DNA of 64,000 nucleotides from positions 1 to 64,000 of the IMG/VR virus record IMGVR_UViG_3300014293_000001; one strand, given 5' to 3'. Below the pieces are notes generated by a model. The model made no database searches and was not told the origin of the DNA. It was given only the letters and a program-made list of their open reading frames with translations. A program made the translations under genes and the position numbers. The DNA comes from a virus. Shown in pieces: positions 7,199 through 61,855 of this stretch (within the stretch, counting starts at the first letter, position 1; each line of letters opens with the position of its first letter).

Positions 7199-7575
7199 GT
7201 TGGTTTAAAAAAATTAAAGAGAAGGTAAAATCTTTCTTTAAAAAGGAGGACAAAGTGCCAGCTGGTATTGAGATTTATAATGAACAAAATAAATTAATTT
7301 TAGGAACTAATTATCGTGGTTTACGATTATTAAAAATGTTAAAACTGCAAGATTTGAAAGGTTCTACATCAGTTACGCCTAAAAATGGCGAAGAAATTCT
7401 TGCATTTGCTGTATTACATTGCTCTGACACAGTATGGCATTATAGTGATATTAAATATTGTAATGTCAATGGGCATACCATCTCGTGGGAATTTTCCGAG
7501 GGAAATGCATCATCTGCATTTGGTTCCAGTGAAAATGGACGTATTAATGTTTATATATTTGGGAGGGCAAAATAA
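7189..7575 (+). CDS. hypothetical tail-module protein
   Basis: 128 aa overlapping the upstream stop. The start is uncertain: GTG 7189 or TTG 7195 after GTGGGGG. Confidence 0.55.
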   Translation: MELSWFKKIKEKVKSFFKKEDKVPAGIEIYNEQNKLILGTNYRGLRLLKMLKLQDLKGSTSVTPKNGEEILAFAVLHCSDTVWHYSDIKYCNVNGHTISWEFSEGNASSAFGSSENGRINVYIFGRAK

Positions 7576-28701: not shown

Positions 28702-29283
28702 ATGAGCAAATATATCATACACAAAATACCTGTAGATATTAGCGATGATAAACGTGAAGAATATATTCAATATATGAAAAATATATCAAATAATGATAGA
28801 AATGCGTATTTTGTTTCACTATCAAAATATGGTAATTATTTAATTATTGATATTTCCGAAACATCGGAACCTGTTTTACAGATTAAAACTATGTTACTAG
28901 GAGAAAGAGAATTTATTAAATCTATTAGCCATGAAATATTACAAATTTCATACGATAAAGACAGTAATGGTATGTTTATAAAAAAAATGATGATACACCC
29001 TATGTTAAATGGGTTTTCAATGTCAAGTCCATATGCATACTATTATTTTAGAAATAATAATGAAGAATCTCAAATTAGGATAGTTGAAAAAAGTATAGTA
29101 CCACTTGCACTATATACTGGACACATTGAAAAAATATTAATGCCAAGCTCTAGGGTATGTGAAAGTGAAGTGGCTGAACTTAAAAAATTAATTCAAGAAT
29201 ATGAGTATTCTATATACCGCTATATGATTTGCAATATTATTCAAAATCATTGTGATGTAGAAAAATATGAGGTAAATATATGA
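28702..29283 (+). CDS. hypothetical protein
   Basis: AAAGGAG SD; 193 aa. Confidence 0.65.
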   Translation: MSKYIIHKIPVDISDDKREEYIQYMKNISNNDRNAYFVSLSKYGNYLIIDISETSEPVLQIKTMLLGEREFIKSISHEILQISYDKDSNGMFIKKMMIHPMLNGFSMSSPYAYYYFRNNNEESQIRIVEKSIVPLALYTGHIEKILMPSSRVCESEVAELKKLIQEYEYSIYRYMICNIIQNHCDVEKYEVNI

Positions 29284-39307: not shown

Positions 39308-39756
39308 TAATAGCACCAGAAGAAAATATAGTAAGATTATTACGACAAATGAAAGACCAAGGTTTTACTGATTTTGTTATATTAGATGGAAATCTCCACA
39401 TTTTTGGCGACGGTATTGATGGAAAGATTATGTATTTGCCTAAAACAATCATGACTACCTTATGTACATTTTTATTGTCGCATAGACCACCGTATTCTAT
39501 ATCTAAAATTATTGCGGATATTGAACATGATTATGTTGGTCCAGATAAAGGATTTCAGTGGTTTGATTGTGTTCATAAACCAAATAAGCTTCGTTTCCGT
39601 GAAAGTAAACTTGGCGAAATGGTATTTACATTAAATGGTATTGTACGTTGTAACAAAGGCGATAAAATCATCATTGGTGTTAATGGTGAGCAATACCCAT
39701 GTGATAAAGAAATTTTTAAATTATTATATGACGAGGTGGAAAATGCAAGTAATTAA
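39304..39756 (+). CDS. hypothetical protein
   Basis: ATGA overlap; 150 aa. Confidence 0.6.
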   Translation: MIIAPEENIVRLLRQMKDQGFTDFVILDGNLHIFGDGIDGKIMYLPKTIMTTLCTFLLSHRPPYSISKIIADIEHDYVGPDKGFQWFDCVHKPNKLRFRESKLGEMVFTLNGIVRCNKGDKIIIGVNGEQYPCDKEIFKLLYDEVENASN

Positions 39757-42700
39757 ACGTGATGGAACAACCGAAGAATATTTAGGTCAAAAAATTGAGC
39801 GTGCAGTAGAAAAGGCAATGTTTGCAACATATCTTGTTATGGAGCCAACTATGTTAGCAGAACCATTCCAAGTGTCGTTATATGTATGGGATATTATTAA
39901 AGACGCAAAAGAACCTATATCTATTAAACAATTAGAAAATATTATTTTTCGTAAATTAACTGATGATGGTTATACTGATGCCGCTGTTAATTATATTGAA
40001 TACAAAACAAAACGTGATATGGAACGTAGTAAACATAAATTAACTCAAGAATTCTTGGACAAATATCCTGATTACCCTGATTGTATGGACGAGTTAGCTA
40101 AATTTGTGTATATTCGTACATATTCTCGTTGGTTGCCAGATAAAAATCGTCGTGAAACATGGAAAGAAACGTGTGCTCGTGCTATTAATGGTAATTGTTC
40201 TTATTTGCCTACGGCAGACGGTGAACCAGAAGCATTGTTTGATAATATGTTTAATTTACGACAACGTATTTCTGGTCGTATGTTATGGATGGGTGGTACT
40301 GAAGCATTGGAAAAAACACCATTAGCGGCGTATAATTGTTCTGGTATTACGATGGATAGTATTCATGCATTTCATGAATTATTTTATTTGTTAATGGTAG
40401 GTACTGGTGTTGGTTGTCGTGTATTGAAAGAAGATATTGCAAAATTACCTCAGTTTGATACAACTAAAAAGTTATATCACGTTAAAACTCCTGTTCCTAA
40501 AGGTACAACATTAGAGCATACAAAAGTATCTAACTATGGTCATAGTGTTATCATTACAGTAGGTGATAGTAAAGAAGGTTGGTGTGAAGCATTAACTGCA
40601 TATCTTACTACTATGACGGATAATGTAACTACATCTATTTCTATTGATTACAGTTATATTAGACCTCAAGGTGCACCACTTAAAACATTCGGTGGTTATG
40701 CAAGTGGCTATGCATCTTTAAAAGAAATGTTTGAAAAGCTTCATAAAATTATTGTCAAAGAAAGCACCGATGGTAAATTACGTCCATTGAATGTTGCCGA
40801 TATGTGTAATATTGTTGGGCAAAATGTAGTTGCAGGTGGTACACGCAGAACAGCAGAACTTATCCTATTTAGTCCTGATGATGAAGAAATGCTACACGCT
40901 AAGGAAAACCTAGACCCAGAACATTACTTCCGTTATATGTCTAATAACTCTATGTATTTAGAAGAAAAGCCTTCTAAAGAAGGTTTACGTAAGTTAATGA
41001 TGTCTATTAAAGAAACAGGAGAACCGGGTTTTATTAATGTTGCTTCTGCTAAAAAGCGTCGTGAAGATTTTGATATATGTAATCCATGTGTAACTGGTAC
41101 TACAGAAATCTTAACTAAAGAGTATGGTTATATTCAAATTAAAGACGTTGTTGACGAAGATGTAACAGTATGGAATGGTTATGATTGGAGCCCTGTAACA
41201 CCTAGAGTAACTGGTTATGACCAACCTATGATGAGAATTCAATTTTCTAATGGTAATGAATTAGAATGTACTAATTACCATAAATTTGTGATGCAAGATG
41301 GTTCTCGCATTGAAGCTCGTGAATTATGTATTGGCGACAAATTAGAAAGATGGGAATTCCCTGTAGTTGAAGCAGATGAACGTGCTATGGGTATCTATTA
41401 TGCAGAAGATTATGACCCATATATTCACGGATATTATGCTGGTGATGGTATACAAAATAAACCTTTGATTTACTTATATGGTGAAAAACGTAAATTAGTA
41501 GATGTATTCAGCAATTCATCTGGATGTACGATTAGTGAAGGGTTAGAACGTGATACAGTATTATTGCCTAAACAACTATCTAAATATCTTGTACCAGATG
41601 TTGGGGACGCAGTATATCATAGATTGCGTTACTTAGCTGGTCTACTTGATAGTACTGGATGCGTACATTTCAGTGAAGGCTCTGTTGCTATTCCATCTAT
41701 TGATAAAGAATTCCTTATTAAGATTTCTCGTCTGTTAAATACACTAGGTTGTCATGCTTCTATTCATTTAATGCATGAAGGTGGTTATCGTAAAGTGCCA
41801 GTTGAAGGTGGTCCTGATGATAGTCAAGTATATTATTGCCGACCTACATATAAATTAATTATTCCCGCTTGGTATGTTAGACGTTTAATTAATTTGGGTT
41901 TGTCAACTCATTATATTCATTTAGATGCTTATCCAAATAGTAATGATAGCCAAGCTATTTATATCACATCTATTGAATATATTAGAAATTGTCCAACAGT
42001 ATATTGTTTTACTGAAAATAAAAATCATACTGGTATTTTTAATGGTGTTATGACTGGACAATGTGCTGAAATTTTATTACCATCTAAAGCAGTATGCAAC
42101 CTTACTAATATCAACGTATCTAAGTTTATTGATGAACGTGGTAATGTAATGATACCTCAGCTTAAAGAAGCATGTAAATTATCTGCTCGTGCTTGTTATC
42201 GTTTAACTGAACCTGAATTAGAATTAGAAGGTTGGAGTGATATTCACCATAGAGACCGTTTAATTGGTTGCTCTATTACAGGTTGGCAAGATGCTGTAGC
42301 TGGTAATTTAACGAAAGAAGAACAAGAAGCATTACTTGTATTAATGAAAATGTGGATTAACGATGCGGCTAATAAATACGCAGATGAAAACCATCGTCCT
42401 CACCCTGTATTGTATACAACAGTACAACCAGATGGTACAGGTGGATTAATTAGTAGTTGTTCTGCTGGTGTTCATTATAATCATGCTCCATATTATTTCA
42501 GACGTGTACGTATTTCAACCAATTCTCCATTATACCAAGCTGTTAAATATTTAGATGGCTGGCAAATTGATAATGAAGTTGGTCAAGGTGATGATGGTAA
42601 TACAAAAGTAATTACATTCCCTTGTAAATCTAAATCTACAATTACAAAATATAATGTATCAGCTATTGAACAATTAGAACAATATAAGATGATGCAAACA

Positions 42701-43012
42701 TGTTACGTGGACCATAATACATCAATTACTGTTACAGTAAAAGACAATGAATGGGACGATGTAATAGATTGGTTAGATAAAAATTGGGATTGTGTAGTAG
42801 GTATTTCATTCTTGTCTCTAAATCAAGATTACTATCCGTTAATGCCTTATGAAGAATGCACTAAAGAACAGTACTTAGAATTAAAATCTAAAATGTCTCC
42901 ACTTGACCCAGAATTAGTCAATAAATATGAATTTGAACTACAAACTGTAGGTAAAGATTTTGAAATTGATGAAAGTGGAGAATGTGAAGATGGTCATTGC
43001 CCAGTGCGGTAG
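39743..43012 (+). CDS. ribonucleotide reductase, class II-like (B12-dependent, RTPR-like), intein-containing
   Basis: ATG 39743 follows GAGGTGG; the track start 39635 is an upstream extension. N-terminal VIKRDG (ATP-cone-like). The finger-loop motif NP|C..AEI is split by an intein. C-terminal C-x4-C tail (CEDGHC). Confidence 0.75.
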   Translation: MQVIKRDGTTEEYLGQKIERAVEKAMFATYLVMEPTMLAEPFQVSLYVWDIIKDAKEPISIKQLENIIFRKLTDDGYTDAAVNYIEYKTKRDMERSKHKLTQEFLDKYPDYPDCMDELAKFVYIRTYSRWLPDKNRRETWKETCARAINGNCSYLPTADGEPEALFDNMFNLRQRISGRMLWMGGTEALEKTPLAAYNCSGITMDSIHAFHELFYLLMVGTGVGCRVLKEDIAKLPQFDTTKKLYHVKTPVPKGTTLEHTKVSNYGHSVIITVGDSKEGWCEALTAYLTTMTDNVTTSISIDYSYIRPQGAPLKTFGGYASGYASLKEMFEKLHKIIVKESTDGKLRPLNVADMCNIVGQNVVAGGTRRTAELILFSPDDEEMLHAKENLDPEHYFRYMSNNSMYLEEKPSKEGLRKLMMSIKETGEPGFINVASAKKRREDFDICNPCVTGTTEILTKEYGYIQIKDVVDEDVTVWNGYDWSPVTPRVTGYDQPMMRIQFSNGNELECTNYHKFVMQDGSRIEARELCIGDKLERWEFPVVEADERAMGIYYAEDYDPYIHGYYAGDGIQNKPLIYLYGEKRKLVDVFSNSSGCTISEGLERDTVLLPKQLSKYLVPDVGDAVYHRLRYLAGLLDSTGCVHFSEGSVAIPSIDKEFLIKISRLLNTLGCHASIHLMHEGGYRKVPVEGGPDDSQVYYCRPTYKLIIPAWYVRRLINLGLSTHYIHLDAYPNSNDSQAIYITSIEYIRNCPTVYCFTENKNHTGIFNGVMTGQCAEILLPSKAVCNLTNINVSKFIDERGNVMIPQLKEACKLSARACYRLTEPELELEGWSDIHHRDRLIGCSITGWQDAVAGNLTKEEQEALLVLMKMWINDAANKYADENHRPHPVLYTTVQPDGTGGLISSCSAGVHYNHAPYYFRRVRISTNSPLYQAVKYLDGWQIDNEVGQGDDGNTKVITFPCKSKSTITKYNVSAIEQLEQYKMMQTCYVDHNTSITVTVKDNEWDDVIDWLDKNWDCVVGISFLSLNQDYYPLMPYEECTKEQYLELKSKMSPLDPELVNKYEFELQTVGKDFEIDESGECEDGHCPVR
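41087..42061 (+). mobile_element. intein (325 aa) with LAGLIDADG homing-endonuclease domain
   Basis: Starts CVTGTTEIL directly after Asn-Pro. Contains TNYH (block B) and the LAGLIDADG-like motifs HGYYAGDG and YLAGLLDSTG. Ends VYCFTENKNHTGIFNGVMTGQ, followed by extein CAEI. Confidence 0.8.
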
Positions 43013-49023: not shown

Positions 49024-49057
49024 AAAAAAAGCCCCAATTAAGGGGCTTATTTTTTTA
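49024..49057. terminator. bidirectional intrinsic terminator between convergent operons
   Basis: A7, AGCCCC-AATTAA-GGGGCT, T-run. Confidence 0.85.
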
Positions 49058-50126: not shown

Positions 50127-50306
50127 TTATATTAATTCAGCATAATACGTTGTATTAGATACTGAACGATTGCTATACATATTCATATAAAACGCATATG
50201 TATCATCACGCCACTTTTGTACTCTATATTGCACTCTTGTAGTCAATATCTCAGACGTAACAAAGCACCCACACAATGAGCGAAATCTATCTTCTGGTCT
50301 AATCAT
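50127..50306 (-). CDS. small paralog family member 13 of 13 (59 aa; below the track cutoff)
   Basis: ATG 50306 follows TAAGGAGGAAGC. Reads MIRPEDRFRSLCGCFVTSEILTTRVQYRVQKWRDDTYAFYMNMYSNRSVSNTTYYAELI. Confidence 0.55.
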   Translation of the reverse strand: MIRPEDRFRSLCGCFVTSEILTTRVQYRVQKWRDDTYAFYMNMYSNRSVSNTTYYAELI

Positions 50307-50315
50307 GCTTCCTCC

Positions 50316-50507
50316 TTATACAAAAAACTTAACTTCATAAATCATATTACGTGACATACTCTTACCGTAACGCCCTATGTAGCAATATTTTAATGGTTCT
50401 ACATCTATACTCAAATAATGGTCATGCAATACATTAAATAATAAGTCTTGTTCATACGCATCATATTGGATAGAAGTTGCTTTTAATATATCGCTTTTCC
50501 TTATCAT
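50316..50507 (-). CDS. small paralog family member 12
   Basis: ATG 50507 follows GAGGTG (MIRKSD...YEVKFFV); the track start 50543 is upstream. Confidence 0.6.
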   Translation of the reverse strand: MIRKSDILKATSIQYDAYEQDLLFNVLHDHYLSIDVEPLKYCYIGRYGKSMSRNMIYEVKFFV

Positions 50508-50517
50508 ATTCACCTCA

Positions 50518-50727
50518 TTAGTATCTTTGTAATTTAGCTGCACATATAGATTTATATATTATTGCATTGTAAGAATCTCGTGTATCATATCGCATAATAT
50601 ATAAACCATCTATTGTTAAAACAGTTTGACCAAATTTGTTTGGAGGACAACAATAACCGTATGTATATGTCGTAGACGCATAATTTTTAACAAGATATAC
50701 TCTTAACATATTTTTTGTATCAATCAT
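50518..50727 (-). CDS. small paralog family member 11
   Basis: 69 aa; ATGA overlap with the upstream member. Confidence 0.6.
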   Translation of the reverse strand: MIDTKNMLRVYLVKNYASTTYTYGYCCPPNKFGQTVLTIDGLYIMRYDTRDSYNAIIYKSICAAKLQRY

Positions 50728-50930
50728 TCTACACCTCTTGTTAATACCACTTTAAATGGTCTTATTCTATCTACATAATAACGTTCACCATATAAATAGT
50801 AGAATAATTGTGAAATCGCACATTCGTCTTCAAGACGTTCATAATTTTCCATATATCTAGTAGTTTTAACTATAGTCGGTCGTTTAATAACATCTGTAAA
50901 TTGATATAAATATTTTGTATTTAACATCAT
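50724..50930 (-). CDS. small paralog family member 10
   Basis: 68 aa, abutting its neighbours. Confidence 0.6.
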   Translation of the reverse strand: MMLNTKYLYQFTDVIKRPTIVKTTRYMENYERLEDECAISQLFYYLYGERYYVDRIRPFKVVLTRGVE

Positions 50931-51130
50931 TATCCTCTTTTCTTCACGTATTTTATTTCAATAACTTTACGATATGCATTATTTTTATTACTATAATTAT
51001 TTCTATAAGCTAATTTTAATGGGCATAATACATCAGCAACACGTGTCGGATGAAATATAAAGCTAACGTTACCTATACAATTAGAGTAATGTTTAGTTGT
51101 TAAAATTACACCATCTGCCGCTCTTATCAT
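50930..51130 (-). CDS. small paralog family member 9
   Basis: MIRAADG...YRNNY...IEIKYVK; 66 aa. Confidence 0.65.
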   Translation of the reverse strand: MIRAADGVILTTKHYSNCIGNVSFIFHPTRVADVLCPLKLAYRNNYSNKNNAYRKVIEIKYVKKRG

Positions 51131-51309
51131 TTTAACTTCACCACTCTAAACATATTATGACATTGATATAAGTATATAAAATTATCCAACATTACAAATG
51201 GTACTGCGTATGTTGATAAATTATTATTATTTATGAATTGAGATACACGTATTCTCTGTTTAGGATGTACTATATTGACTTGATACAGTCTATCATTTTT
51301 GTTTATCAT
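51127..51309 (-). CDS. small paralog family member 8
   Basis: MINKNDRL...RVVKLK; 60 aa. Confidence 0.65.
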   Translation of the reverse strand: MINKNDRLYQVNIVHPKQRIRVSQFINNNNLSTYAVPFVMLDNFIYLYQCHNMFRVVKLK

Positions 51310-51311
51310 AA

Positions 51312-51497
51312 TTAATCACATAACCCCTCATATTTTATTTCAATCATCTGCTGGTAATTATACATATATTTATAAATATATAATAATAGAATATTACCAT
51401 CATATATATATCCAATACGTTCTTTACACGATAGTTTATCTACTACATTCGGATAATCTGTATATGTACATATTACTTTGGCTTTGTTATGTATCAT
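51312..51497 (-). CDS. small paralog family member 7
   Basis: MIHNKAK...IEIKYEG; 61 aa. Confidence 0.6.
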   Translation of the reverse strand: MIHNKAKVICTYTDYPNVVDKLSCKERIGYIYDGNILLLYIYKYMYNYQQMIEIKYEGLCD

Positions 51498-51684
51498 AAT
51501 CTAGCTCCATTATTGCAAAAATATAATTATTATCGTATCTCATTTGTAATATGTCTATTAATCGCCATTTGACATTATGACATACGAATATACATTCAGA
51601 TGTATCTACTTTATGACGAATGAATGGCAAAGTTACATCATTGGATGTTTCTTTTATCAAAAAAGTGTCATTCTTCTTCATCAT
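51487..51684 (-). CDS. small paralog family member 6
   Basis: MMKKNDTF...MRYDNNY...ELDYD; 65 aa. Confidence 0.65.
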   Translation of the reverse strand: MMKKNDTFLIKETSNDVTLPFIRHKVDTSECIFVCHNVKWRLIDILQMRYDNNYIFAIMELDYDT

Positions 51685-51868
51685 ACTTCACCTGTACTAA
51701 TTCATAATTATATCCAGCGGAATATTGATTACGAAATATATTGTATACTCCACGAATCTGTTCGTGTATAAATAATAATGGATAGTTGTGTGTATCACCT
51801 CGTAGTTCGTAAGCCACTGCATTGGCTCTTATTTCAATTAATCGAACACCATCATTTTTATTCAACAT
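51668..51868 (-). CDS. small paralog family member 5
   Basis: MLNKNDGV...FRNQYSAGY...VQVKYDE; 66 aa. Confidence 0.65.
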   Translation of the reverse strand: MLNKNDGVRLIEIRANAVAYELRGDTHNYPLLFIHEQIRGVYNIFRNQYSAGYNYELVQVKYDEEE

Positions 51869-52052
51869 TTTTTACTCCTGCTATGGTATATTCATATCCA
51901 TTTTTATAATTTCTAATATAAACATCACGTATACTATTTAAATCGTCATATGTAAAATACCAACTGTAAGGTTGCACTGAACTGCATAATTTACCAATAG
52001 TTTTCGCTGCTCTCATTTCTATTAATGAGATTTGATGATATATATTTAACAT
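51858..52052 (-). CDS. small paralog family member 4
   Basis: MLNIYHQ...IRNYKNGY...AGVKNVE; 64 aa. Confidence 0.65.
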   Translation of the reverse strand: MLNIYHQISLIEMRAAKTIGKLCSSVQPYSWYFTYDDLNSIRDVYIRNYKNGYEYTIAGVKNVE

Positions 52053-52246
52053 AACTTCACCTTAAATGCATTTAACATACCCTGATAATCATTTCTAGCA
52101 TATTTGTTGCGGAACATTTTTTCGACAAGTACTGTACTGATGTAAAAATCAGCACGATAATATCTACTTGCTCCACCACAAAATTGTGGTACATATTCTA
52201 TTGCTGTCATTCTAATTTTTTGATTTTTATTTATCATTCGTATCAC
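52046..52246 (-). CDS. small paralog family member 3
   Basis: MIRMINKNQ...FRNKYARNDY...FKVKLC; 66 aa. Confidence 0.65.
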   Translation of the reverse strand: MIRMINKNQKIRMTAIEYVPQFCGGASRYYRADFYISTVLVEKMFRNKYARNDYQGMLNAFKVKLC

Positions 52247-52247
52247 C

Positions 52248-52439
52248 TCAATCTTCTAATTTCAAATAAAACACACCGTTATCATCTTTATCGTAACACG
52301 CAATTAGTTCATTACACAGATAACAATCAGGTGAGCTATCTGTTTGTTGATAATCCGTTGTAATAGGACCAAATAATTTGTTAATTATATTATAATTAAC
52401 TGTATAATAGCTAGTAACTGATGCATAACGATTTAGCAT
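52248..52439 (-). CDS. small paralog family member 2
   Basis: 63 aa ending FYLKLED. Confidence 0.55.
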   Translation of the reverse strand: MLNRYASVTSYYTVNYNIINKLFGPITTDYQQTDSSPDCYLCNELIACYDKDDNGVFYLKLED

Positions 52440-52618
52440 ATAAACACCTCTTCACTTATTTGATATACAAAAGCAGCACCGTGCTTGTAGTTTCTTGTAA
52501 ACAGTGCTAATAATGTCATTGAAGATAATTCTGTTACAGGATTAGGAAAATCTTGTGTCCATCTGAAATGATTTTTGTATGTTGTTATTTTTACTTTAAA
52601 TGTTTTTTGTTCTATCAT
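52433..52618 (-). CDS. small paralog family member 1
   Basis: 61 aa; contains TRNYKHG. SD is GAGGTG. Confidence 0.6.
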   Translation of the reverse strand: MIEQKTFKVKITTYKNHFRWTQDFPNPVTELSSMTLLALFTRNYKHGAAFVYQISEEVFIC

Positions 52619-52645: not shown

Positions 52646-52663
52646 GGGGAGCCGAAGCTCCCC
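52646..52663 (-). other. very stable GC hairpin with C(UUCG)G tetraloop on the transcribed (minus) strand
   Basis: The plus strand reads GGGGAGC-CGAA-GCTCCCC, so the minus-strand RNA loop is UUCG. No U-tract follows on the minus strand. Confidence 0.6.
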
Positions 52664-52669
52664 ACTGGA

Positions 52670-53227
52670 CTATTGGGAAACTTCAGCAGTATTTACTTCT
52701 TCATTCACTTCATTTTCTACAGGTGTTTCTGTAGCTGTTTCAGAAGGTGTTTCAGGAGTTGGTTCTGTTGGTGCTTGAACCATTACAACTGGAGTTGGGT
52801 TGGACATTTTGTAGTGTTCGTAGAATTCGGTACCCATTTCACGGTCAATTCGTTTTAATTCTTGAATTAACAAATAAGATGTTTCAGCACCACGTTCGAT
52901 GTATTTCTTAGTGCGTGCTTTAATAGCCATTAACACGATTTGTTGTAAATCACGTACTTTAACAGTACCAGCTTTAGATACGAATACGAATTTCTTAGCC
53001 GTTTCTTCGTTTAAAGAGATAACAGGGATTTTAATAGTATCTACTGCATCTTTACCAGTGTTAGTAGCGGCAAATTCAGAAATTGCACGAGCAACACCAG
53101 ATGGAGTAGCAGAATATACTTTAGTTTGTTTTAAAGAATTGGCAATAAAACGTAATTGTTCTTTATCAGATAAAGCAGAAACGTAGTTAGTAATAATCAA
53201 GTTCATTTGTGCAACAGTTGTAGCCAT
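52670..53227 (-). CDS. hypothetical protein with acidic P/T/E-rich tail
   Basis: AAAGAGG SD; 185 aa. C-terminus reads APTEPTPETPSETATETPVENEVNEEVNTAEV. Confidence 0.7.
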   Translation of the reverse strand: MATTVAQMNLIITNYVSALSDKEQLRFIANSLKQTKVYSATPSGVARAISEFAATNTGKDAVDTIKIPVISLNEETAKKFVFVSKAGTVKVRDLQQIVLMAIKARTKKYIERGAETSYLLIQELKRIDREMGTEFYEHYKMSNPTPVVMVQAPTEPTPETPSETATETPVENEVNEEVNTAEVSQ

Positions 53228-53231
53228 AATT

Positions 53232-54419
53232 TTATACCTCTTTCATAGTATGATTAATAATTGTTTTCTTAATATTTTGAGTTCGCAATCTGTATTCATC
53301 AATGCTATCTTTAGCATAGAGATATACAATATTGCAAGGTTCTGTCTGACCAATACGATGTATACGGTCTTCAGCTTGACCCATTAGAGAGGGCGACCAC
53401 GGATATTCAATAAATATAGCCGTGTGTGCTTTGGTTAGGGTAATACCAACAGCACTTGCCTGTAAACTACAGATAATCAAATTTGTGTGATTAGCATTCG
53501 AGCCAGAGTGCATCTGGAAATTGTCAATATTTTGTTGTCTATTTCGTTTAGATTGACCACCGATGATGTATTTTGCATCAGGAAATTCCTTTCTTAATTT
53601 TTCTACAATATTTCGATGGTGTGCAAATACCACAAGGGACTCACCTCTTTCTAATACTTTACGAATGTATTCTATACAATAAGGAAGTTTTTGTTTTAAC
53701 ACTTCTTTATCGTATTTTTCAATCTCCTCAAACGAAGTTGGTTCTGGTTGAGATATAGTGCAACAAGGAACCATGTGGACAGTTTTTGGAGGAAGATTTT
53801 TTTGTACATTTTTAAGACGTCTTATCCATACTTTTTTCATCGCTTCATTGAGCTTTGATAAATTTGAATGACCGTCGTTTGATGTACCCCATGGTGATTG
53901 ATAAGCTCCACAGAAATCTCTTAGGAATTTATCTTTACCACCAAATTTATATGTAAGTCCTGCAATCTCTAATTGACATAACAACTCTTTAGGTCTGTTT
54001 AATACTGGTGTACCTGTAATCATAATACGATAACGAACACCTTCAACCAATTTCATCGCTGCTTTAGTACACTGAGATGTGGGAGTTTTTAAAATATGAC
54101 ATTCATCGAATATAACTTGTTGTATATTAAGGCGTTTAAGTGAAACTAAATATCTGGTTAAACGCTCATAATTTGTAATGATAACTTTGGAACTCATATC
54201 ATCAACATTTACATCAATTCCAGCCCATGTTTTCAACTCTCTTTTCCAGTTTTCTTTTAGAGGAGCAGGACAAACAACTAAAGTAGGGAACTTATTTCGT
54301 TCCTTAATTAAAGTGCATACTTGAACAGTTTTACCTAAACCCATATCATCACAAAGGAAAATAGATGATTGGTTAAGCATTTTATTAACGCCTTGTCTTT
54401 GATATGGGTATAGTTTCAT
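53232..54419 (-). CDS. SNF2-family helicase/ATPase (minimal two-lobe form)
   Basis: Motifs DDMGLGKT, DECH, TGTP and QAEDRIHRIGQ. TAATG overlap with the upstream gene. Confidence 0.8.
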   Translation of the reverse strand: MKLYPYQRQGVNKMLNQSSIFLCDDMGLGKTVQVCTLIKERNKFPTLVVCPAPLKENWKRELKTWAGIDVNVDDMSSKVIITNYERLTRYLVSLKRLNIQQVIFDECHILKTPTSQCTKAAMKLVEGVRYRIMITGTPVLNRPKELLCQLEIAGLTYKFGGKDKFLRDFCGAYQSPWGTSNDGHSNLSKLNEAMKKVWIRRLKNVQKNLPPKTVHMVPCCTISQPEPTSFEEIEKYDKEVLKQKLPYCIEYIRKVLERGESLVVFAHHRNIVEKLRKEFPDAKYIIGGQSKRNRQQNIDNFQMHSGSNANHTNLIICSLQASAVGITLTKAHTAIFIEYPWSPSLMGQAEDRIHRIGQTEPCNIVYLYAKDSIDEYRLRTQNIKKTIINHTMKEV

Positions 54420-55543
54420 TATGCCTCCAGTCTTACAGTACCAGTTTTGTCATCGTAGACACCTTTCACTGTACCGATAACACTATAAAAAATATCGTTT
54501 AATGAACCACTAACATGTGGAAAATTTGTGACAAAGAATACGCAAGACTTATCTTTAGTATTCTCAGTTAAGTCCCATACAGCACCTTTTTCATCTTCAA
54601 TAAATTCCATCATAGCATTCATTTTTTCTTGATTCATTGGCGTTTTACCACCATTTGCAATACATTTAACCATTGTGTATGTGGTTTTTACCTTTTCTTC
54701 TGCTTTAGGTACTTTATACCCAGATAAATAAGAGGAGTATTTTAATCCATATCTATTAAAGAATGGTGTTTGTACCCAACCATCTAGCACAACATAATGT
54801 TTACCACCGTCGATATAATGTTCAATGATTGTATTACCGTAACCTTCTACTAATTTAGTAAAGTTTGCTAACCAATCTGGTTCTCCAACTGGCGGTGTAA
54901 TTTCATATTCATAGTAGCTAGTATAAGATGTATAACCACATCCACCATAATAGTAACTACTTTTGCGTTCTTCATAACTTGTATTAGAATATTGAATACC
55001 TGTTTCAGTAGAAGTATTCCAAGAACCAAGGATAATCGCACTTTTTTTACCAAGGATAGCGTACTTGTTTGTACCCATCGCCTTTTTGATAAGATATTGA
55101 GTGCTTTCTTTATACAGTTTATCTTTAAGAGGGAATAACACTTGTGCACCAAAGTACATTGTATCACTATAAGGTGATAACATGCCTTCTTTTGGTGTAA
55201 AGTCACTCATTACACCATTATGAGAAAAACCAATATCTGTAAATACATCAGTTTCACGCATTGTTTCCAAATTGTCGCTAAGTGCAAACGGATGGCAACA
55301 TTCTGGCGAAATTTTACCAGACGTTGCAATTCTAAAGTGGAATACACGGTCCCTGTCAGTAGGAAGGTCTTTCACTGCATTCCAAAAATCATCAAAATTC
55401 ATAAACCCTTTACGAATATGAACTTTCTTTTTGTTATCATCGTAAATCATGAAACCAGCACCATCAGGATTATTTACGAAGCAGTTTCTAAATTCTTTCT
55501 CTGATAACTCTGTATACTTAGATGCATAAGCAATAACGCACAT
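54419..55543 (-). CDS. class-II (Ntn) glutamine amidotransferase-like protein (YafJ-type) with C-terminal extension
   Basis: Starts MCVIAY (nucleophile Cys2), then PDGAGF...HFRIATSG...CHPF...FSHNGV. TAATG overlap with the upstream gene. Confidence 0.75.
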   Translation of the reverse strand: MCVIAYASKYTELSEKEFRNCFVNNPDGAGFMIYDDNKKKVHIRKGFMNFDDFWNAVKDLPTDRDRVFHFRIATSGKISPECCHPFALSDNLETMRETDVFTDIGFSHNGVMSDFTPKEGMLSPYSDTMYFGAQVLFPLKDKLYKESTQYLIKKAMGTNKYAILGKKSAIILGSWNTSTETGIQYSNTSYEERKSSYYYGGCGYTSYTSYYEYEITPPVGEPDWLANFTKLVEGYGNTIIEHYIDGGKHYVVLDGWVQTPFFNRYGLKYSSYLSGYKVPKAEEKVKTTYTMVKCIANGGKTPMNQEKMNAMMEFIEDEKGAVWDLTENTKDKSCVFFVTNFPHVSGSLNDIFYSVIGTVKGVYDDKTGTVRLEA

Positions 55544-57270
55544 TATTTTGCCTCCTTTAATAATCCTGTCTTCTGTAAGACATTACGTAACTCAATGTAT
55601 TTTTTATTTTTCGCTATACGAGCGATGTTACTCCAACCAATATAGCGTATAGAATTCATATTCGCTAAGTCGGTAATTACATCGACAAACTGAATATAAG
55701 CATGAATTCGCTCTACATCTTGTGTGGAGCGGAACATGCGGAACTCTACAGTCTGACTAGGACAAAGATTAATTGCACGATATTTTTCGTTTTCATCTTT
55801 TGCCACAGTATAAATTTGAGATAACTCCTTGACTGTCATTCCATACTTTTGGCACCAATTACTATCTTCATCAGTTCTGCAAGCAAAAAGCATTAATGTA
55901 TCAAAATTATTTTCAACAAATCGAATAATTTTGGCAATTTCATTATTGCCTTTGAAGAAATTACGATTTACATGAATATGTAAACCTGAGTTTGCACTAG
56001 ACTCACCATGCAAATCTTGCACACGTTTAAAGAATTTATCATAGTCGATATTACTTAAATGGAATTGAGGTGTACATGGGTGAGTAACGAACTCCATTCC
56101 GTCGCGTAATGAGCCGTCATGTTTAGCATAGACAATTTTGTTTAAATCACCAATAATCAAATCAGCTCTTTCATTACTTTCGCCACAACGGTGGAATTCC
56201 ATTTCAATACCAAGGAATTTCTTGCCTTCACCATTAAACACTGGCTCTGGTTTAAAATTGTAAGAATGTAAGCCAGTCAATGGAGCTGCACTTTGGGACG
56301 AATAATATTTATTGTTTGAATGTCGATAAAATTCATTACGTCGTGCCTTACTAAACTTCTTGCCCAAATCTTCTACAAAAATAAAGTCTTCTTCAGTTGC
56401 ACCATATGTTCCATTATGACATACAAGTCTGTCTTTTACGCTAGGGTGGAAATAAACTTTACCAGTGCCAGAAATATAACCTTCTATCATTTCTGTTTTC
56501 AATCCTGTTTGATGAGATAGAGGACATGTAACAATGAATTGGTCTACTAATACTGGGTGTATACCCGATTGTTTAACAATGTCACGTTCATCTGCAATAT
56601 AGAACGGCACGCCAGTAACTTTACAAATGGCAAAATCAGGATAATCCACAAGTTTATCTAACTCATCAAAACCAATGTATAGATTTTCATAATCTTTACC
56701 TAAAATCAAGTGGAAGTTTTGAGGGTTGTACCAATTACCACTTACAAACGATTTCTTAATGAACTCTGGTTTGTCATCTTTATTCATTCGCATGATACCC
56801 AGTTTTGTTCTAACTATAATAACATCATTACCCAATGGTTTACCTGTTATAGCACAATGCGTATTAATATTACCAATTACTTCTGTATCATCGTCTACTA
56901 CCAAGATTTTACTGTCGATAGCAGCACAGTAGTAATATACCACATCGCCACGTGTCATAACAGTTAAGATATTGTTATATCTATCTTTAAGGACTTGACC
57001 AACATGATATTTACATTTTCTATGTGTGTCTGTAGTACAACCATAATTAATAACAGTTCTACCTGTTACTTTTTCCACTACTAATTCACTATCAGTAGGT
57101 GTAATCTGTAATTCAGAAGGTAAAAGAACAGTACATTCATCAGCTAGAAAGAAATCACGTGAATCATTACTAGCACATAAATATCCGTATGCTCCTTCAT
57201 GGTTATAACCATCGCCAATTACACGATAAACACTACGTCCGTGTTTAATTTTAATGCCTAATGTAATCAT
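55543..57270 (-). CDS. amidoligase (COOH-NH2 ligase, Amidoligase_2-type) with ~340-aa N-terminal extension
   Basis: C-terminal FLGIEMEFH...KHDGSL..GMEFVTHP...SGLHIHV...TVEFRMFRST pattern. ATG 57270 overlaps the upstream stop (TAATG). Confidence 0.65.
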   Translation of the reverse strand: MITLGIKIKHGRSVYRVIGDGYNHEGAYGYLCASNDSRDFFLADECTVLLPSELQITPTDSELVVEKVTGRTVINYGCTTDTHRKCKYHVGQVLKDRYNNILTVMTRGDVVYYYCAAIDSKILVVDDDTEVIGNINTHCAITGKPLGNDVIIVRTKLGIMRMNKDDKPEFIKKSFVSGNWYNPQNFHLILGKDYENLYIGFDELDKLVDYPDFAICKVTGVPFYIADERDIVKQSGIHPVLVDQFIVTCPLSHQTGLKTEMIEGYISGTGKVYFHPSVKDRLVCHNGTYGATEEDFIFVEDLGKKFSKARRNEFYRHSNNKYYSSQSAAPLTGLHSYNFKPEPVFNGEGKKFLGIEMEFHRCGESNERADLIIGDLNKIVYAKHDGSLRDGMEFVTHPCTPQFHLSNIDYDKFFKRVQDLHGESSANSGLHIHVNRNFFKGNNEIAKIIRFVENNFDTLMLFACRTDEDSNWCQKYGMTVKELSQIYTVAKDENEKYRAINLCPSQTVEFRMFRSTQDVERIHAYIQFVDVITDLANMNSIRYIGWSNIARIAKNKKYIELRNVLQKTGLLKEAK

Positions 57271-57485
57271 TATAACCATTCCCCCTCAATAATTCTATCA
57301 ATATCAATAATATTAGATGGTTTTCTGCGGAACTCTTTTTCCGTATAGAATGGGTTGGAATAAACTTCGATAGTACCATCAACACCATCTGCTGTTCTAC
57401 CAACTTGTGTCAAACAATCTGATAGTGTACGTGTTTTCATAGCGTAAGCTATAGGATAAAATCTTTTAACCATTTTTTTAGGCAT
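57270..57485 (-). CDS. small hypothetical protein coupled to the amidoligase gene
   Basis: ATG 57485 follows AAAGGTGG; 71 aa. It overlaps both neighbours. Confidence 0.55.
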   Translation of the reverse strand: MPKKMVKRFYPIAYAMKTRTLSDCLTQVGRTADGVDGTIEVYSNPFYTEKEFRRKPSNIIDIDRIIEGEWL

Positions 57486-58263
57486 TAAAAATACCACCTT
57501 TCTTTAACATTAAACCTAAAGAATTATACCACATAGGATGTAGAATTTCTTTATTACTACTGAAATAGCGTTTGATTTTTAATACATCAAACGATTTTAA
57601 TTGTTTCTGCCATACATCATTTTCTGATGTAAACAATGCAATTTGACATTTTGGCAAATCTTGTGCCAAAGTTGTAGAGGAAATTAATCTTTCTACAAAC
57701 CCTACTTTGTGTTCACCATCATTGTAATATCTAGCGGCACAAAGCAAACCATTAATAAACACCAACCCAATAGTAATTGTCTTATCACTACTGATAATGA
57801 CAGTTGGTACATCTTTTTTAGCTTTATCCTTACATAATTGATAAAGTCCTTCGCCGTAATAACTAATGCTACGAAGGTCGGTACCAAATCGTTTTAAACT
57901 TTCGTGCAAGCTATCTACTTGAAAATTAGGGATAGCAACTAAACTAACATATTGCTTCCCTAAAATAGTACCAATACGTAATGTAGATTTATCGTGTGTT
58001 GGACTACCAACAATATATGGCAAGGCACCGTATTTAATAAGCTCCTTATCCAAATCGCTTTGTACTAACAAAACTTCAGGACGATACATGCGTGCCACAT
58101 GTAATCTAAATTCACCCTTTTTAAAACCTTTCATTGTCTGAGAGGCTCTATCTAATTTTGATGTTTTATACCCGTCAAATTCGGTGAATGTAATTTCACC
58201 TTCCTTGTTTCGATATACAGCAAACCCCGTTTCGGAATTTACCGTTAAACCTAGATTTTTCAT
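57478..58263 (-). CDS. hypothetical protein
   Basis: TAGGAGG SD; 261 aa. Confidence 0.7.
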   Translation of the reverse strand: MKNLGLTVNSETGFAVYRNKEGEITFTEFDGYKTSKLDRASQTMKGFKKGEFRLHVARMYRPEVLLVQSDLDKELIKYGALPYIVGSPTHDKSTLRIGTILGKQYVSLVAIPNFQVDSLHESLKRFGTDLRSISYYGEGLYQLCKDKAKKDVPTVIISSDKTITIGLVFINGLLCAARYYNDGEHKVGFVERLISSTTLAQDLPKCQIALFTSENDVWQKQLKSFDVLKIKRYFSSNKEILHPMWYNSLGLMLKKGGIFNA

Positions 58264-58271
58264 ATTACCTC

Positions 58272-58610
58272 CTAAATACCAATGCTAAGACAACCTTCTA
58301 CTTTGCTTCCATTACGGATAACTTCAGCAGGAACTAATAAATCGTCCCTTTCTGGATAATGCAACTTGAATAGAGCTGATACAATATACCATACACCTTT
58401 TTTAGGCTCTGGTAATTGCGAACAACGATATACCGTTTTAGTAACTCTAATACCGTTGATATACCCTTGGAGTGTGGTAACTTCATCCAATCTCCATTCC
58501 TCACCTTTTACAGCAGGAATAACTTGGTCGATGTCACCTGTTTCATCAAGTATAGTCACTTCATGGGGAGTTTTGTTCAATATTTCCCCATGATAGCTGA
58601 ATAAAAACAT
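58272..58610 (-). CDS. hypothetical protein
   Basis: GAGGGA SD; 112 aa. Confidence 0.65.
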   Translation of the reverse strand: MFLFSYHGEILNKTPHEVTILDETGDIDQVIPAVKGEEWRLDEVTTLQGYINGIRVTKTVYRCSQLPEPKKGVWYIVSALFKLHYPERDDLLVPAEVIRNGSKVEGCLSIGI

Positions 58611-58619
58611 GCTATTCCC

Positions 58620-59111
58620 TCACTTCTCTACATTAAACCAGTCTTGAATGGTAAAAGATAATTCGGTATTACGTAACTCATTAAAACTCATAAAACCGAA
58701 GTCCTTATCATTAAAAAAGAAGTCATCGGATGTGGAATACAAGCCAATTTCGGCACTTTCCATAGCAACTTGTACAGCTTTATTACCACGGCAAACTTGT
58801 TTATTATAATCCGTATTTTCAAAAGCCATATCTTGTGGCAAGCATACGGAATTGAAAAGAAATACTTTATCTTTATTGTTGAGCTTCATTGCTTTTTGGC
58901 AAATACGCTCAATCAATTTTTGCGTAGGTTTTGCTACAGTCCACATACTGTATGCTAATTCTACGACATTATTACTAACGCCGTATTGATTAGCAAGAAT
59001 TGTCAATTCCTCACCATTGAGGTCGGTAGATACTTCTCTACCAACAGAAAAATCTAGTTTTTGTTTTTCGCTTAACCATAAAGCAAAAATTCCAAAAATT
59101 GTACGTGCCAT
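58620..59111 (-). CDS. hypothetical protein
   Basis: ATG 59111 follows AGGAAGGAG; an alternative ATG 59132 abuts the stop of the upstream micro-ORF. Confidence 0.65.
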   Translation of the reverse strand: MARTIFGIFALWLSEKQKLDFSVGREVSTDLNGEELTILANQYGVSNNVVELAYSMWTVAKPTQKLIERICQKAMKLNNKDKVFLFNSVCLPQDMAFENTDYNKQVCRGNKAVQVAMESAEIGLYSTSDDFFFNDKDFGFMSFNELRNTELSFTIQDWFNVEK

Positions 59112-59132
59112 AATAGGCTCCTTCCTAAGCAT

Positions 59133-61846: not shown

Positions 61847-61855
61847 CTCAAGATA

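Follow-up and report, generated by a model that had tools for sequence, protein, structure and literature searches.

The minus-strand region at positions 53232-58610 of the window (the whole 64,000-nucleotide stretch analysed here, positions 1 to 64,000 of the IMG/VR virus record IMGVR_UViG_3300014293_000001) is a divergent new example of a widespread module that is already known, though functionally uncharacterised, and that consists of an amidoligase gene and the gene of a class-II, N-terminal nucleophile (Ntn)-type glutamine amidotransferase (GATase)-like protein, located here beside a Crn4b-type, likely anti-defence gene. An earlier note on this DNA, made from the letters alone, had described seven closely packed genes, from position 58610 down to 52670, as one functional unit, and had presented as new elements the coupling of the two enzymes to a SNF2-family ATPase, a large N-terminal extension of the ligase, and a small protein of 71 amino acids (aa). 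Since the pairing of ligase and GATase-like protein was already known and none of these three novelties held, the region is better described as a divergent version of the known module. Only two genes make up the conserved unit. They are translationally coupled in many lineages, and the GATase-like partner retains its Met-Cys start in every homolog surveyed and the other catalytic-type residues in the 30 that were aligned. Our preferred reading, which we hold tentatively, is that the pair encodes a two-subunit glutamine-dependent amidotransferase acting on a macromolecular substrate, with a role in host takeover or counter-defence, and that the other genes of the region are independent modules.

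Conservation of the ligase-GATase pair

The two genes of the pair are the following:
55543-57270, minus strand: amidoligase, 575 aa (578 aa if read from an ATG further upstream), identified by PF12224, predicted fold and PHROG families
54419-55543, minus strand: class-II (Ntn) GATase-like protein, 374 aa, identified by predicted fold and its Met-Cys start

With diverse GATase-like homologs as anchors, loci were retrieved from collections of viral sequences and of genomes, and every open reading frame (ORF) in them was searched with hidden Markov models (HMMs) of the families under study. The survey comprised 154 loci, corresponding to 66 lineages after dereplication at 80% identity. In 61 of the 66 lineages, the gene that immediately precedes the one for the GATase-like protein encodes an amidoligase; the distance from the ligase stop codon to the Met-Cys start of the GATase-like protein was 120 nt or less in 52 out of 62, and the two genes overlapped in 15. 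The pair was present on phage contigs and on genome contigs of Firmicutes, Coriobacteriia, Bacteroidota, Ignavibacteria, Planctomycetota and a Thaumarchaeota metagenome-assembled genome (MAG), and unbiased clustering of all neighbouring ORFs in the 66 lineages revealed no other family that co-occurred widely. Neighbourhood conservation, by which the earlier note had proposed that its seven-gene unit be judged, thus gave a divided answer: the ligase-GATase pairing is conserved and previously known, as that note had stated, and the remaining genes do not share in this conservation, those encoding the 112-, 261-, 71- and 185-aa proteins being restricted to the two or three closest lineages. In the window, the two genes share a TAATG junction with a 1-nt overlap, and gene calls in relatives likewise take the 575-aa start of the ligase, i.e. 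the ATG of the TAATG junction that precedes it. The order of the two genes is fixed, their junctions are short or overlapping, and both active sites look intact.

Two loci carry a more distant arrangement (L036, 8001-10327; L037, 1224-3550), in which the amidoligase, less closely related, is fused to DUF3846 and LIM-like repeats and is directly followed by a separate, canonical class-II GATase recognisable by the Pfam GATase_4/6/7 families. These elements also bear genes for an excisionase-like helix-turn-helix protein, a relaxase and an integrase. An apparent ligase-GATase fusion in locus L109, with an internal start reading ...SMCIIVY, lies in a GC-rich genome; it is probably an artefact of ORF calling and was not used as evidence.

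The amidoligase

The assignment of the 575-aa protein as an amidoligase, made earlier from the motifs GIEMEFH, KHDGSL, SGLHIHV and VEFRMFRST, all of which are present in the translation, was confirmed by profile and fold searches. The protein matched PF12224 (Amidoligase_2) at residues 431-534 with 22.9 bits (cut-off 22, E 9e-5), as well as PHROG families 16683, 2443 and 7469 ("amidoligase enzyme", E ~3e-8), and PF12224 was also found in homologs retrieved with the ligase and in related ligases of the fetched loci. NCBIfam and PADLOC returned no match to the ligase, and a profile search of the PDB with the ligase family gave nothing meaningful. Two parts could be distinguished in the protein, a β-rich N-terminal extension (residues ~1-330) and a carboxylate-amine ligase domain of the glutamine-synthetase/YbdK type (~335-575), which was mostly modelled by AlphaFold2 (AF2) with pLDDT values of 85-97 (77 overall). 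The best Foldseek matches of this model were YbdK structures (1r8g and 1tt4, E 2.8e-5 to 8.7e-5, probability 1.0), followed by Dop/PafA, glutamine synthetase and the γ-glutamylmethylamide synthetase GmaS, together with dozens of viral models annotated as "amidoligase enzyme". In an alignment of 19 homologs, the most distant of them around 25-30% identical, K386-H387-D388-G389-S390, E396, H400-P401, H434, H436, N438-R439, E512-F513-R514 and R517 were invariant and E359 and E361 nearly so; by analogy, these acidic, His and Arg residues may form the metal/ATP site.

The N-terminal extension, which had been highlighted as a distinctive trait of this ligase, turned out to be a general feature, since extensions of 130-550 aa are the rule in the family. 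They usually hold between two and nine CxxC motifs and sometimes a LIM match. The version in the window has nine Cys residues and no CxxC. A deep search detected no relatives of it beyond these phage lineages, there was a weak hhalign link to the extensions of ligases from sister lineages, and Foldseek gave no significant PDB match. The sequences thus picture these extensions as fast-evolving, Zn-ribbon/LIM-like in relatives and degenerate in the window phage.

The GATase-like protein

The 374-aa protein contains the motifs MCVIAY, HFRIATSG, CHPF and HNG, on which its reading as a class-II Ntn GATase-like protein had been based, and this reading is borne out by its fold and by an invariant Met-Cys start, found in all 154 surveyed homologs. 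Residues 1 to ~193 are modelled with the four-layer αββα Ntn fold of GATases, with Cys2 as the nucleophile, and are followed by a disordered linker (194-208) and two α/β subdomains (209-372). In the AF2 model, with a pLDDT of 83.8, the N-terminal domain was mostly above 90. Foldseek retrieved the glutaminase domain of GlmS (3ooj and 1xff, E 2.6e-6 to 3e-5, probability 1.0), and then PurF and EgtC. The subdomains of the tail, the length of which varies between homologs, are possibly ACT/ferredoxin-like according to the model, with weak Foldseek matches to ACT domains (E 4e-3 to 2e-2). M1-C2, R71 (in HFRIATSG), H108-N109-G110 and S126-D127 were invariant in the 30 aligned homologs, and hhalign against Escherichia coli GlmS aligned Cys1, HFRIATSG with HTRWATHG, and the HNG motifs of both proteins with a probability of only 61%.

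Pfam GATase_4 was matched by 14 of the 30 homologs (best E 5.9e-5), the PDB profile search yielded 1te5 only (E 0.06), and no match to the GATase-like protein was obtained with NCBIfam or PADLOC. The protein therefore represents a divergent subfamily that is identified by its fold and not through Pfam. The protein has no synthase or acceptor domain fused to the C-terminal side of the glutaminase domain, and in this respect resembles stand-alone members of the YafJ/EgtC type.

A putative two-subunit amidotransferase

Enzymes with the glutamine synthetase fold produce acyl-phosphates and use ammonia or amines as acceptors, class-II GATases such as AsnB, GlmS and PurF release ammonia from glutamine through an N-terminal Cys, and in MurT/GatD a ligase and a glutaminase constitute a two-subunit enzyme that amidates a carboxylate. 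By analogy with these, the amidoligase and the GATase-like protein would form a complex, a process that translational coupling would favour. Cys1 of the GATase-like subunit would hydrolyse glutamine to release ammonia, the glutamine-synthetase-type ligase would use ATP to activate a carboxylate as an acyl-phosphate and would trap the ammonia, turning -COOH into -CONH2, and the variable Zn-ribbon/LIM-like extension, degenerate in the window, would select the substrate. The rapid evolution and Zn-ribbon/LIM-like character of these extensions suggest a macromolecular target, so that a host or phage protein would be a more likely substrate than a small metabolite. In addition, the pair tends to head blocks of small genes next to terminase and portal genes: in other phage groups such a block is divergent from the terminase and SU10-type portal genes, and the pair-containing unit of one near relative of the window phage has a divergent orientation to them as well. 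This position and, in the window, the vicinity of the Crn4b ring-nuclease gene make a role in host takeover or counter-defence a reasonable hypothesis.

Several points weigh against this reading. To our knowledge, canonical class-II GATases are fused N-terminally to a synthase domain instead of being separate subunits, and the protein in the window carries just a small, variable ACT-like tail. It stays below the Pfam GATase_4 threshold (14.4 bits, cut-off 23), and D127 is not cleanly aligned with Asp123 of GlmS in the hhalign comparison. The conserved residues would suit a γ-glutamyl substrate just as well, as they do in EgtC, one of the proteins retrieved by fold. Published suggestions about the pair come from comparative genomics only, no substrate, complex or activity having been reported for any member. 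The early timing of the transcription unit is based on genome position only, and the SNF2 gene remains near the pair across three different gene orders in a family of ~60-70 kb phages, a point that is taken up below.

The main rival explanation, to which we give a rather low probability, is that the two enzymes act sequentially: the amidoligase would attach a glutamate, another amino acid or a peptide through an amide or isopeptide bond, and the GATase-like protein, as a γ-glutamyl or thiol amidohydrolase, would trim or remove it. This is near the "thiol peptidase" reading that the earlier note cites from comparative genomics for such pairs. Precedents exist in EgtA/EgtC, a γ-glutamylcysteine ligase and an Ntn class-II GATase-like γ-glutamyl hydrolase of ergothioneine synthesis, and in PafA/Dop, the glutamine-synthetase-like Pup ligase and deamidase of pupylation; they provide examples of add-then-remove amide chemistry and of protein modification. 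Both folds are among the best structural matches, with YbdK (GCS2 family) and Dop/PafA for the ligase and EgtC for the GATase-like protein, and the latter, lacking a synthase domain, resembles stand-alone YafJ/EgtC (the weak match to 1te5). Because the Arg and Asp that appear to be retained, and that would bind the α-carboxylate and α-amino groups, suit a γ-glutamyl group as well as glutamine, sequence and fold do not separate a glutaminase from a γ-glutamyl hydrolase. However, identity to these systems is just 10-16%, neither a Pup-like tag nor EgtB or EgtD is encoded in the neighbourhood, and no gene for a Pup- or ubiquitin-like tag accompanies the pair across lineages. The C-terminus of the 71-aa protein is ...EGEWL, without a terminal Gln, Glu or Gly-Gly. 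The fixed order and frequent overlaps of the two genes, which would yield nearly equal amounts of both proteins, would also seem to suit a complex better than two opposing activities.

An auxiliary metabolic role, in which the pair would make or amidate a metabolite, a cofactor or a peptide-like secondary metabolite, or would inactivate a carboxylate-bearing immune signal, seems improbable to us. Several genome papers label the pair as auxiliary metabolic genes, the small-molecule enzymes YbdK and GmaS are among the best or good fold matches, and LUZ24-like phages add nearby an ATP-grasp gene and a second COOH-NH2 ligase gene. Nevertheless, extensions that are large, fast-evolving and often rich in Zn-ribbons are unusual for enzymes acting on small molecules, and the survey of 66 lineages showed no further biosynthetic gene conserved along with the pair.

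A similarly low likelihood is assigned to an action on the cell envelope, where the pair would amidate carboxylates of peptidoglycan or of the surface, as MurT/GatD does, excluding superinfecting phages or tuning lysis. The amidation of the iso-Glu of lipid II by MurT/GatD is a biochemical precedent for a ligase working with a glutaminase, and passages in two later papers attribute an envelope-related suggestion for phiEco32 to Iyer et al. 2009 (PMC11318856, PMC10580990). However, neither protein showed a signal peptide, a transmembrane segment or a domain for binding the cell wall, and the pair is also found on relaxase/integrase elements, in the MAG of an archaeon and in a giant virus, whose hosts differ greatly in their envelopes. 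Extensions of the Zn-ribbon/LIM-like kind would rather point to a macromolecule in the cytoplasm as the target.

The SNF2 helicase and a possible link to DNA

The gene that follows the pair is:
53232-54419, minus strand: stand-alone SNF2-family helicase, 395 aa, identified by Pfam and PHROG

One model, developed from the earlier note, is a single DNA-tracking machine in which the ligase and its GATase-like partner would act with the SNF2 ATPase, and perhaps with the 71-aa protein, to place amide-linked marks on phage bases or on DNA-bound proteins. The SNF2 assignment itself was sound. DDMGLGKT, DECH and QAEDRIHRIGQ, for motifs I, II and VI, are present in the translation, and the protein, which consists of two RecA lobes only, matched the Pfam families SNF2-rel_dom (E 3.7e-35) and Helicase_C (E 1.8e-13) and PHROG 62 ("DNA helicase", E 1.2e-86). 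In favour of the model, the GATase and SNF2 genes share a TAATG junction with a 1-nt overlap; against it, overlapping junctions are the rule across the whole operon.

The coupling to SNF2 did not extend beyond a single family of ~60-70 kb phages, represented by 14 lineages. In all 14 the SNF2 gene lies 0.1-3.3 kb downstream of the pair, and in the other 47 of the 61 pair-carrying lineages there is no related SNF2; it is missing beside the pair in nearly all the genome-contig loci and in other phages. A reverse survey, starting from the SNF2 alignment, identified 79 further phage loci, with most SNF2 proteins 28-37% identical. The pair was absent from 75 of them, and the four that carry it all belong to the same ~60-70 kb phage family. 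Homologs with 26-32% identity occur in phages of Bacteroides, Gordonia, Thermus, Caulobacter and Cellulophaga and in Streptococcus phage Dp-1. In three cultured phages (BKO1-TP3, Dp-1 and Orchid), no amidoligase or amidotransferase is annotated near the related SNF2 gene. This gene is found with RecT, exonuclease and NinB genes in BKO1-TP3, and with those for DnaQ and the sliding clamp in Orchid; in Dp-1, the DnaC, DnaB and DnaG genes are a few kb downstream.

Compared with these stand-alone phage SNF2 proteins of ~400-540 aa (Dp-1 gp61, Orchid gp57, BKO1-TP3 gp10), the protein in the window has the same two-lobe core and is 26-32% identical over nearly the full length. The genomic setting differs, as BKO1-TP3 gp10 and Orchid gp57 are among recombination or replication genes and Dp-1 gp61 is a short distance upstream of replication genes, whereas the SNF2 gene in the window is in the minus-strand block, separate from the plus-strand replication module. 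SNF2 is probably a general phage helicase for DNA remodelling or replication-recombination, and the best explanation for its location here is that a stand-alone phage helicase of the ordinary kind has stayed close to the pair through synteny within the family.

DNA-base modification, the role that had been put forward for this assembly, found no support. PHROG scans of 20 of the 24 window ORFs of at least 200 aa (small ORFs and the genome outside the window were not covered) identified no base-modification enzyme and none of the signature enzymes of hypermodification (base-exchange enzyme/hydroxymethylase, kinase, transferase), and did match a thymidylate synthase homolog, ribonucleotide reductase, a DnaE-like polymerase, a primase-helicase, Erf and exonucleases. 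The clusters compared were those of the 5-hydroxymethyldeoxyuridine (5-hmdU) kinase with aGPT-pyrophosphorylase type and of the DpdA/7-deazaguanine type, the signatures of which were not found in the scanned ORFs. Furthermore, no DNA-binding or nucleotide-modifying domain could be recognised in the ligase extensions, those of relatives showing LIM/Zn-ribbon-like repeats only, and the 71-aa gene is lineage-restricted. Altogether, we regard the DNA-tracking machine as an improbable reading.

The proximity of SNF2 to the pair survives several rearrangements within the family, namely the insertion of small genes that accounts for the 0.1-3.3 kb span, the presence of a second ligase and a further gene order. 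In one group of loci from sister phage lineages (L065, 6922-13190, and also L068, L073, L089, L091-L093 and L096), two amidoligase paralogs surround the GATase-like gene, one of ~320 aa upstream and one of ~830 aa downstream, the latter directly overlapping a SNF2 gene of 536 aa. In L243 (6667-13830) the order is ligase-x-x-GATase-SNF2-x-x-x-ligase. This persistence leads us to keep a functional link between SNF2 and the pair that is specific to this family as a possibility, if one of low probability. A more elaborate version, in which SNF2 would have been recruited to the pair in the ~60-70 kb phages to build a DNA-tracking machine that sets glutamine-derived amide or γ-glutamyl marks on DNA or DNA-bound host proteins early in infection, blunting defence, is kept alive by the same constancy through three gene orders and is the least probable of the readings considered here.

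Relation to known systems

Iyer et al. are said to have described pairs of amidoligase and class-II GATase genes by comparative genomics in 2009 (Mol Biosyst 5:1636), and when later papers assign a function to the pair their citations still go back to that comparative genomics alone. The pair has been annotated in phiEco32, in LUZ24-like phages (UFV-P2 ORF23 and ORF25), in Mycobacterium phage Marvin (cluster S, gp105/gp106) and in the OM43 phages MEP401/402. With these known phage pairs, the genes in the window share the two domain families, the order of ligase and then GATase, and carriage by phages or mobile elements; Marvin-type phages and MEP401/402 gave direct tblastn matches to both window proteins, and these cultured phages have the same subfamily. 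In contrast to them, the GATase-like protein in the window is too divergent for Pfam thresholds and has a duplicated ACT-like tail, and its ligase has a lineage-specific extension of ~330 aa without CxxC. The ATP-grasp gene and second ligase of the LUZ24-like phages are absent from the window.

With respect to AsnB, in which a class-II GATase is fused to a synthetase, and MurT/GatD, which combines a Mur-ligase-like protein with a class-I GATase, the proposed chemistry would be alike, and Cys1, Arg and Asn-Gly appear to be retained in the GATase-like protein. However, the fold of the ligase is of the glutamine-synthetase/GCS2 type, and not that of a PP-loop or Mur ligase, and the class-II GATase is a separate polypeptide, its complex with the ligase being a proposal here. 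Another idea, that the genes amount to a polyvalent protein, as understood by Iyer et al. 2017, divided among separate genes, was considered and dropped, as that paper lacks a discussion of amidoligase or GAT-II domains. The literature consulted held no experimental work on the function of the pair and none linking amidoligases to anti-defence; the pair is one of the more widespread gene pairs of phages and mobile elements still without a known substrate.

A Crn4b-type ring-nuclease homolog upstream of the pair

The 112-aa gene, to which no function had been assigned, encodes a homolog of Crn4b-type ring nucleases. A profile built with four sequences (the window protein and three relatives) matched Crn4b (9r7b, E 9.8e-10), Crn4a (9sma, 4.9e-7) and Crn4 H15A (9qs9, 5.7e-6); the single sequence also matched Crn4b, with alignment over the full length, and PADLOC Unk_01 recognised it with an E value of 9e-22. 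The Unk01 family has been renamed Crn4 (Chi et al. 2025, PMC12830947). T14, H16 and R99, invariant in the four aligned sequences, align with the LTPH and VRD motifs of Crn4b, H16 and R99 corresponding to its His and Arg positions (H17 and R103). The residues H15 and R112 of Crn4a are essential, and Crn4b homologs have been found in phages and plasmids and proposed to be anti-CRISPRs (PMC12830947). Among 28,137 reference phage genomes, the family has been reported in just 11. The window protein is similar in size to Crn4b (112 vs 128 aa; Chi et al. 2025, Nat Commun, PMC12830947; 9r7b), aligns over its full length and conserves Thr-x-His and Arg, but its identity to the solved proteins is low. 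It probably degrades cyclic oligoadenylate immune signals, and is likely to be an anti-type-III-CRISPR or anti-CBASS enzyme, which makes it a useful extra annotation in a newly described family of ring nucleases.

A Crn4 homolog was present in three of the 66 surveyed lineages. In a Phascolarctobacterium MAG contig (L098), an ORF at 6968-7294 matched the HMM of the 112-aa family (E 1e-6) and is located 1.3 kb downstream of the amidoligase-GATase pair, a second independent co-location of the two modules.

The transcription unit and its lineage-specific genes

The other elements of the minus strand around the pair are listed below:
58620-59132, minus strand: ORFan, 170 aa, upstream in this transcription unit, separated from the ring-nuclease gene by 9 nt
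58272-58610, minus strand: Crn4b-type ring-nuclease homolog, 112 aa, not part of the ligase module
57478-58263, minus strand: ORFan, 261 aa, only in the closest lineages
57270-57485, minus strand: ORFan, 71 aa from ATG (75 aa from an upstream GTG), in close lineages only
52670-53227, minus strand: protein with an acidic P/T/E tail, 185 aa, lineage-restricted
52646-52663, minus strand: GC hairpin GGGGAGC-UUCG-GCUCCCC, 18 nt, 7 nt past the stop codon of the 185-aa gene
50127-52618, minus strand: 13 packed genes of ~59-75 aa each, next after the 185-aa gene
49029-49048, both strands: bidirectional terminator-like hairpin, with T-runs flanking both sides

All seven minus-strand ORFs were found where they had been placed, with the acidic P/T/E tail of the 185-aa protein present in the translation. 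The three TAATG junctions were also read from the sequence, the third of them joining the 71-aa gene to the ligase gene, equally with a 1-nt overlap. The 261- and 71-aa genes overlap by 8 nt, and gaps of 9, 8 and 4 nt separate the 170-aa from the 112-aa gene, the 112-aa from the 261-aa gene, and the SNF2 gene from the 185-aa gene. The 13 further minus-strand genes, running from 52618 to 50127, are joined at distances of -26 to +9 nt. Terminator-like sites on the minus strand were located at 61849, 61268, 59992 and 49048, and none was found on this strand between 59969 and 49048. This tight packing through 13 more genes and the lack of a terminator-like site indicate that the seven genes are a slice of a longer unit, a leftward transcription unit of ~11 kb (about 59.97 to 49.03 kb) with ~26 genes. 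From its genome position we infer that it is an early operon, and the best explanation for its composition is that it strings together independent modules. Promoter-like matches were at chance level (88 found vs 88.1 expected) and therefore were not used to place the start of the unit.

The products of the 13 small genes begin alike, with N-termini that read M-(I/L)-(N/R)-K-N-D, and their C-termini follow a loosely similar pattern, with significant similarity (E < 0.01) in two pairs only; they may represent a diverged tandem array of paralogous early genes. The plus-strand block and the minus-strand operon converge at the terminator-like hairpin at 49029-49048.

The lineage-specific genes gave little in family searches. 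For the 261-aa protein there was no match in Pfam, PHROG, NCBIfam, PADLOC or PDB, and HMMER against 1.84 billion representative proteins returned two matches, an 87%-identical full-length ortholog and a marginal one over 90 aa (E 3.4e-4). Neither the 185-aa nor the 170-aa protein had a match in the same five collections. The 185-aa gene is present only in lineages with a GATase-like protein at least ~62% identical, and the 261-, 71- and 170-aa genes were each found in two of the 66 lineages. The idea that the 71-aa protein could be a carrier or substrate of the ligase did not hold up, as it has no Pfam, PHROG or PADLOC family, no conserved family beyond close relatives and a C-terminus (...EGEWL or EGDFL) that is not Pup- or ubiquitin-like. 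A small same-strand ORF precedes the ligase gene in 32 of 56 lineages, without sequence conservation, and no conserved small-ORF family was detected at this position in the other surveyed lineages; since small genes are common throughout these blocks, the presence of one upstream of the ligase is uninformative. Close relatives, with GATase identities of 99%, 84%, 71% and 62%, retain the entire block from the 170-aa to the 185-aa gene, which says little about function.

The hairpin at 52646-52663 has no U-tract. An exact 18-nt copy of it occupies the corresponding site of 19 related loci, some of them from lineages whose ligase and GATase-like proteins are just ~54-62% identical to those of the window. 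Such conservation in diverged lineages argues for selection on an RNA or DNA element, which may serve in RNA stability or processing or act as a weak terminator.

The phage and its relatives

The window belongs to a tailed phage, with 29-42% G+C in 2-kb windows and ~34% around the region, and its source is an uncultured tailed phage of the human microbiome. Besides the enzymes of DNA metabolism mentioned above, PHROG scans picked out structural genes, for a major head protein, a scaffold protein and tail fibres. A megablast search with the region matched no GenBank phage. Many contigs of ~64-68 kb from IMG/VR and from metagenomes are related to the window phage. A GenBank contig of a human-faecal phage carries a related ligase, and a more distant relative, a provirus, was found on a Veillonella genome contig (L095).

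Some features of the plus strand are also of interest. The replicative polymerase (29280-32198) is DnaE (Pol III α)-like and at most 33% identical to those of cultured phages, the closest being from Moorella, Bacillus and Geobacillus phages (~30%), a divergence that points to a phage group without cultured representative in the collection. The ribonucleotide reductase ORF (39635-43012, 1125 aa) matched its profile in two stretches and may contain an insertion or an intein. In the structural region, a single ORF of 2800 aa extends over positions 17519-25921, downstream of a protein with weak tape-measure-like matches.

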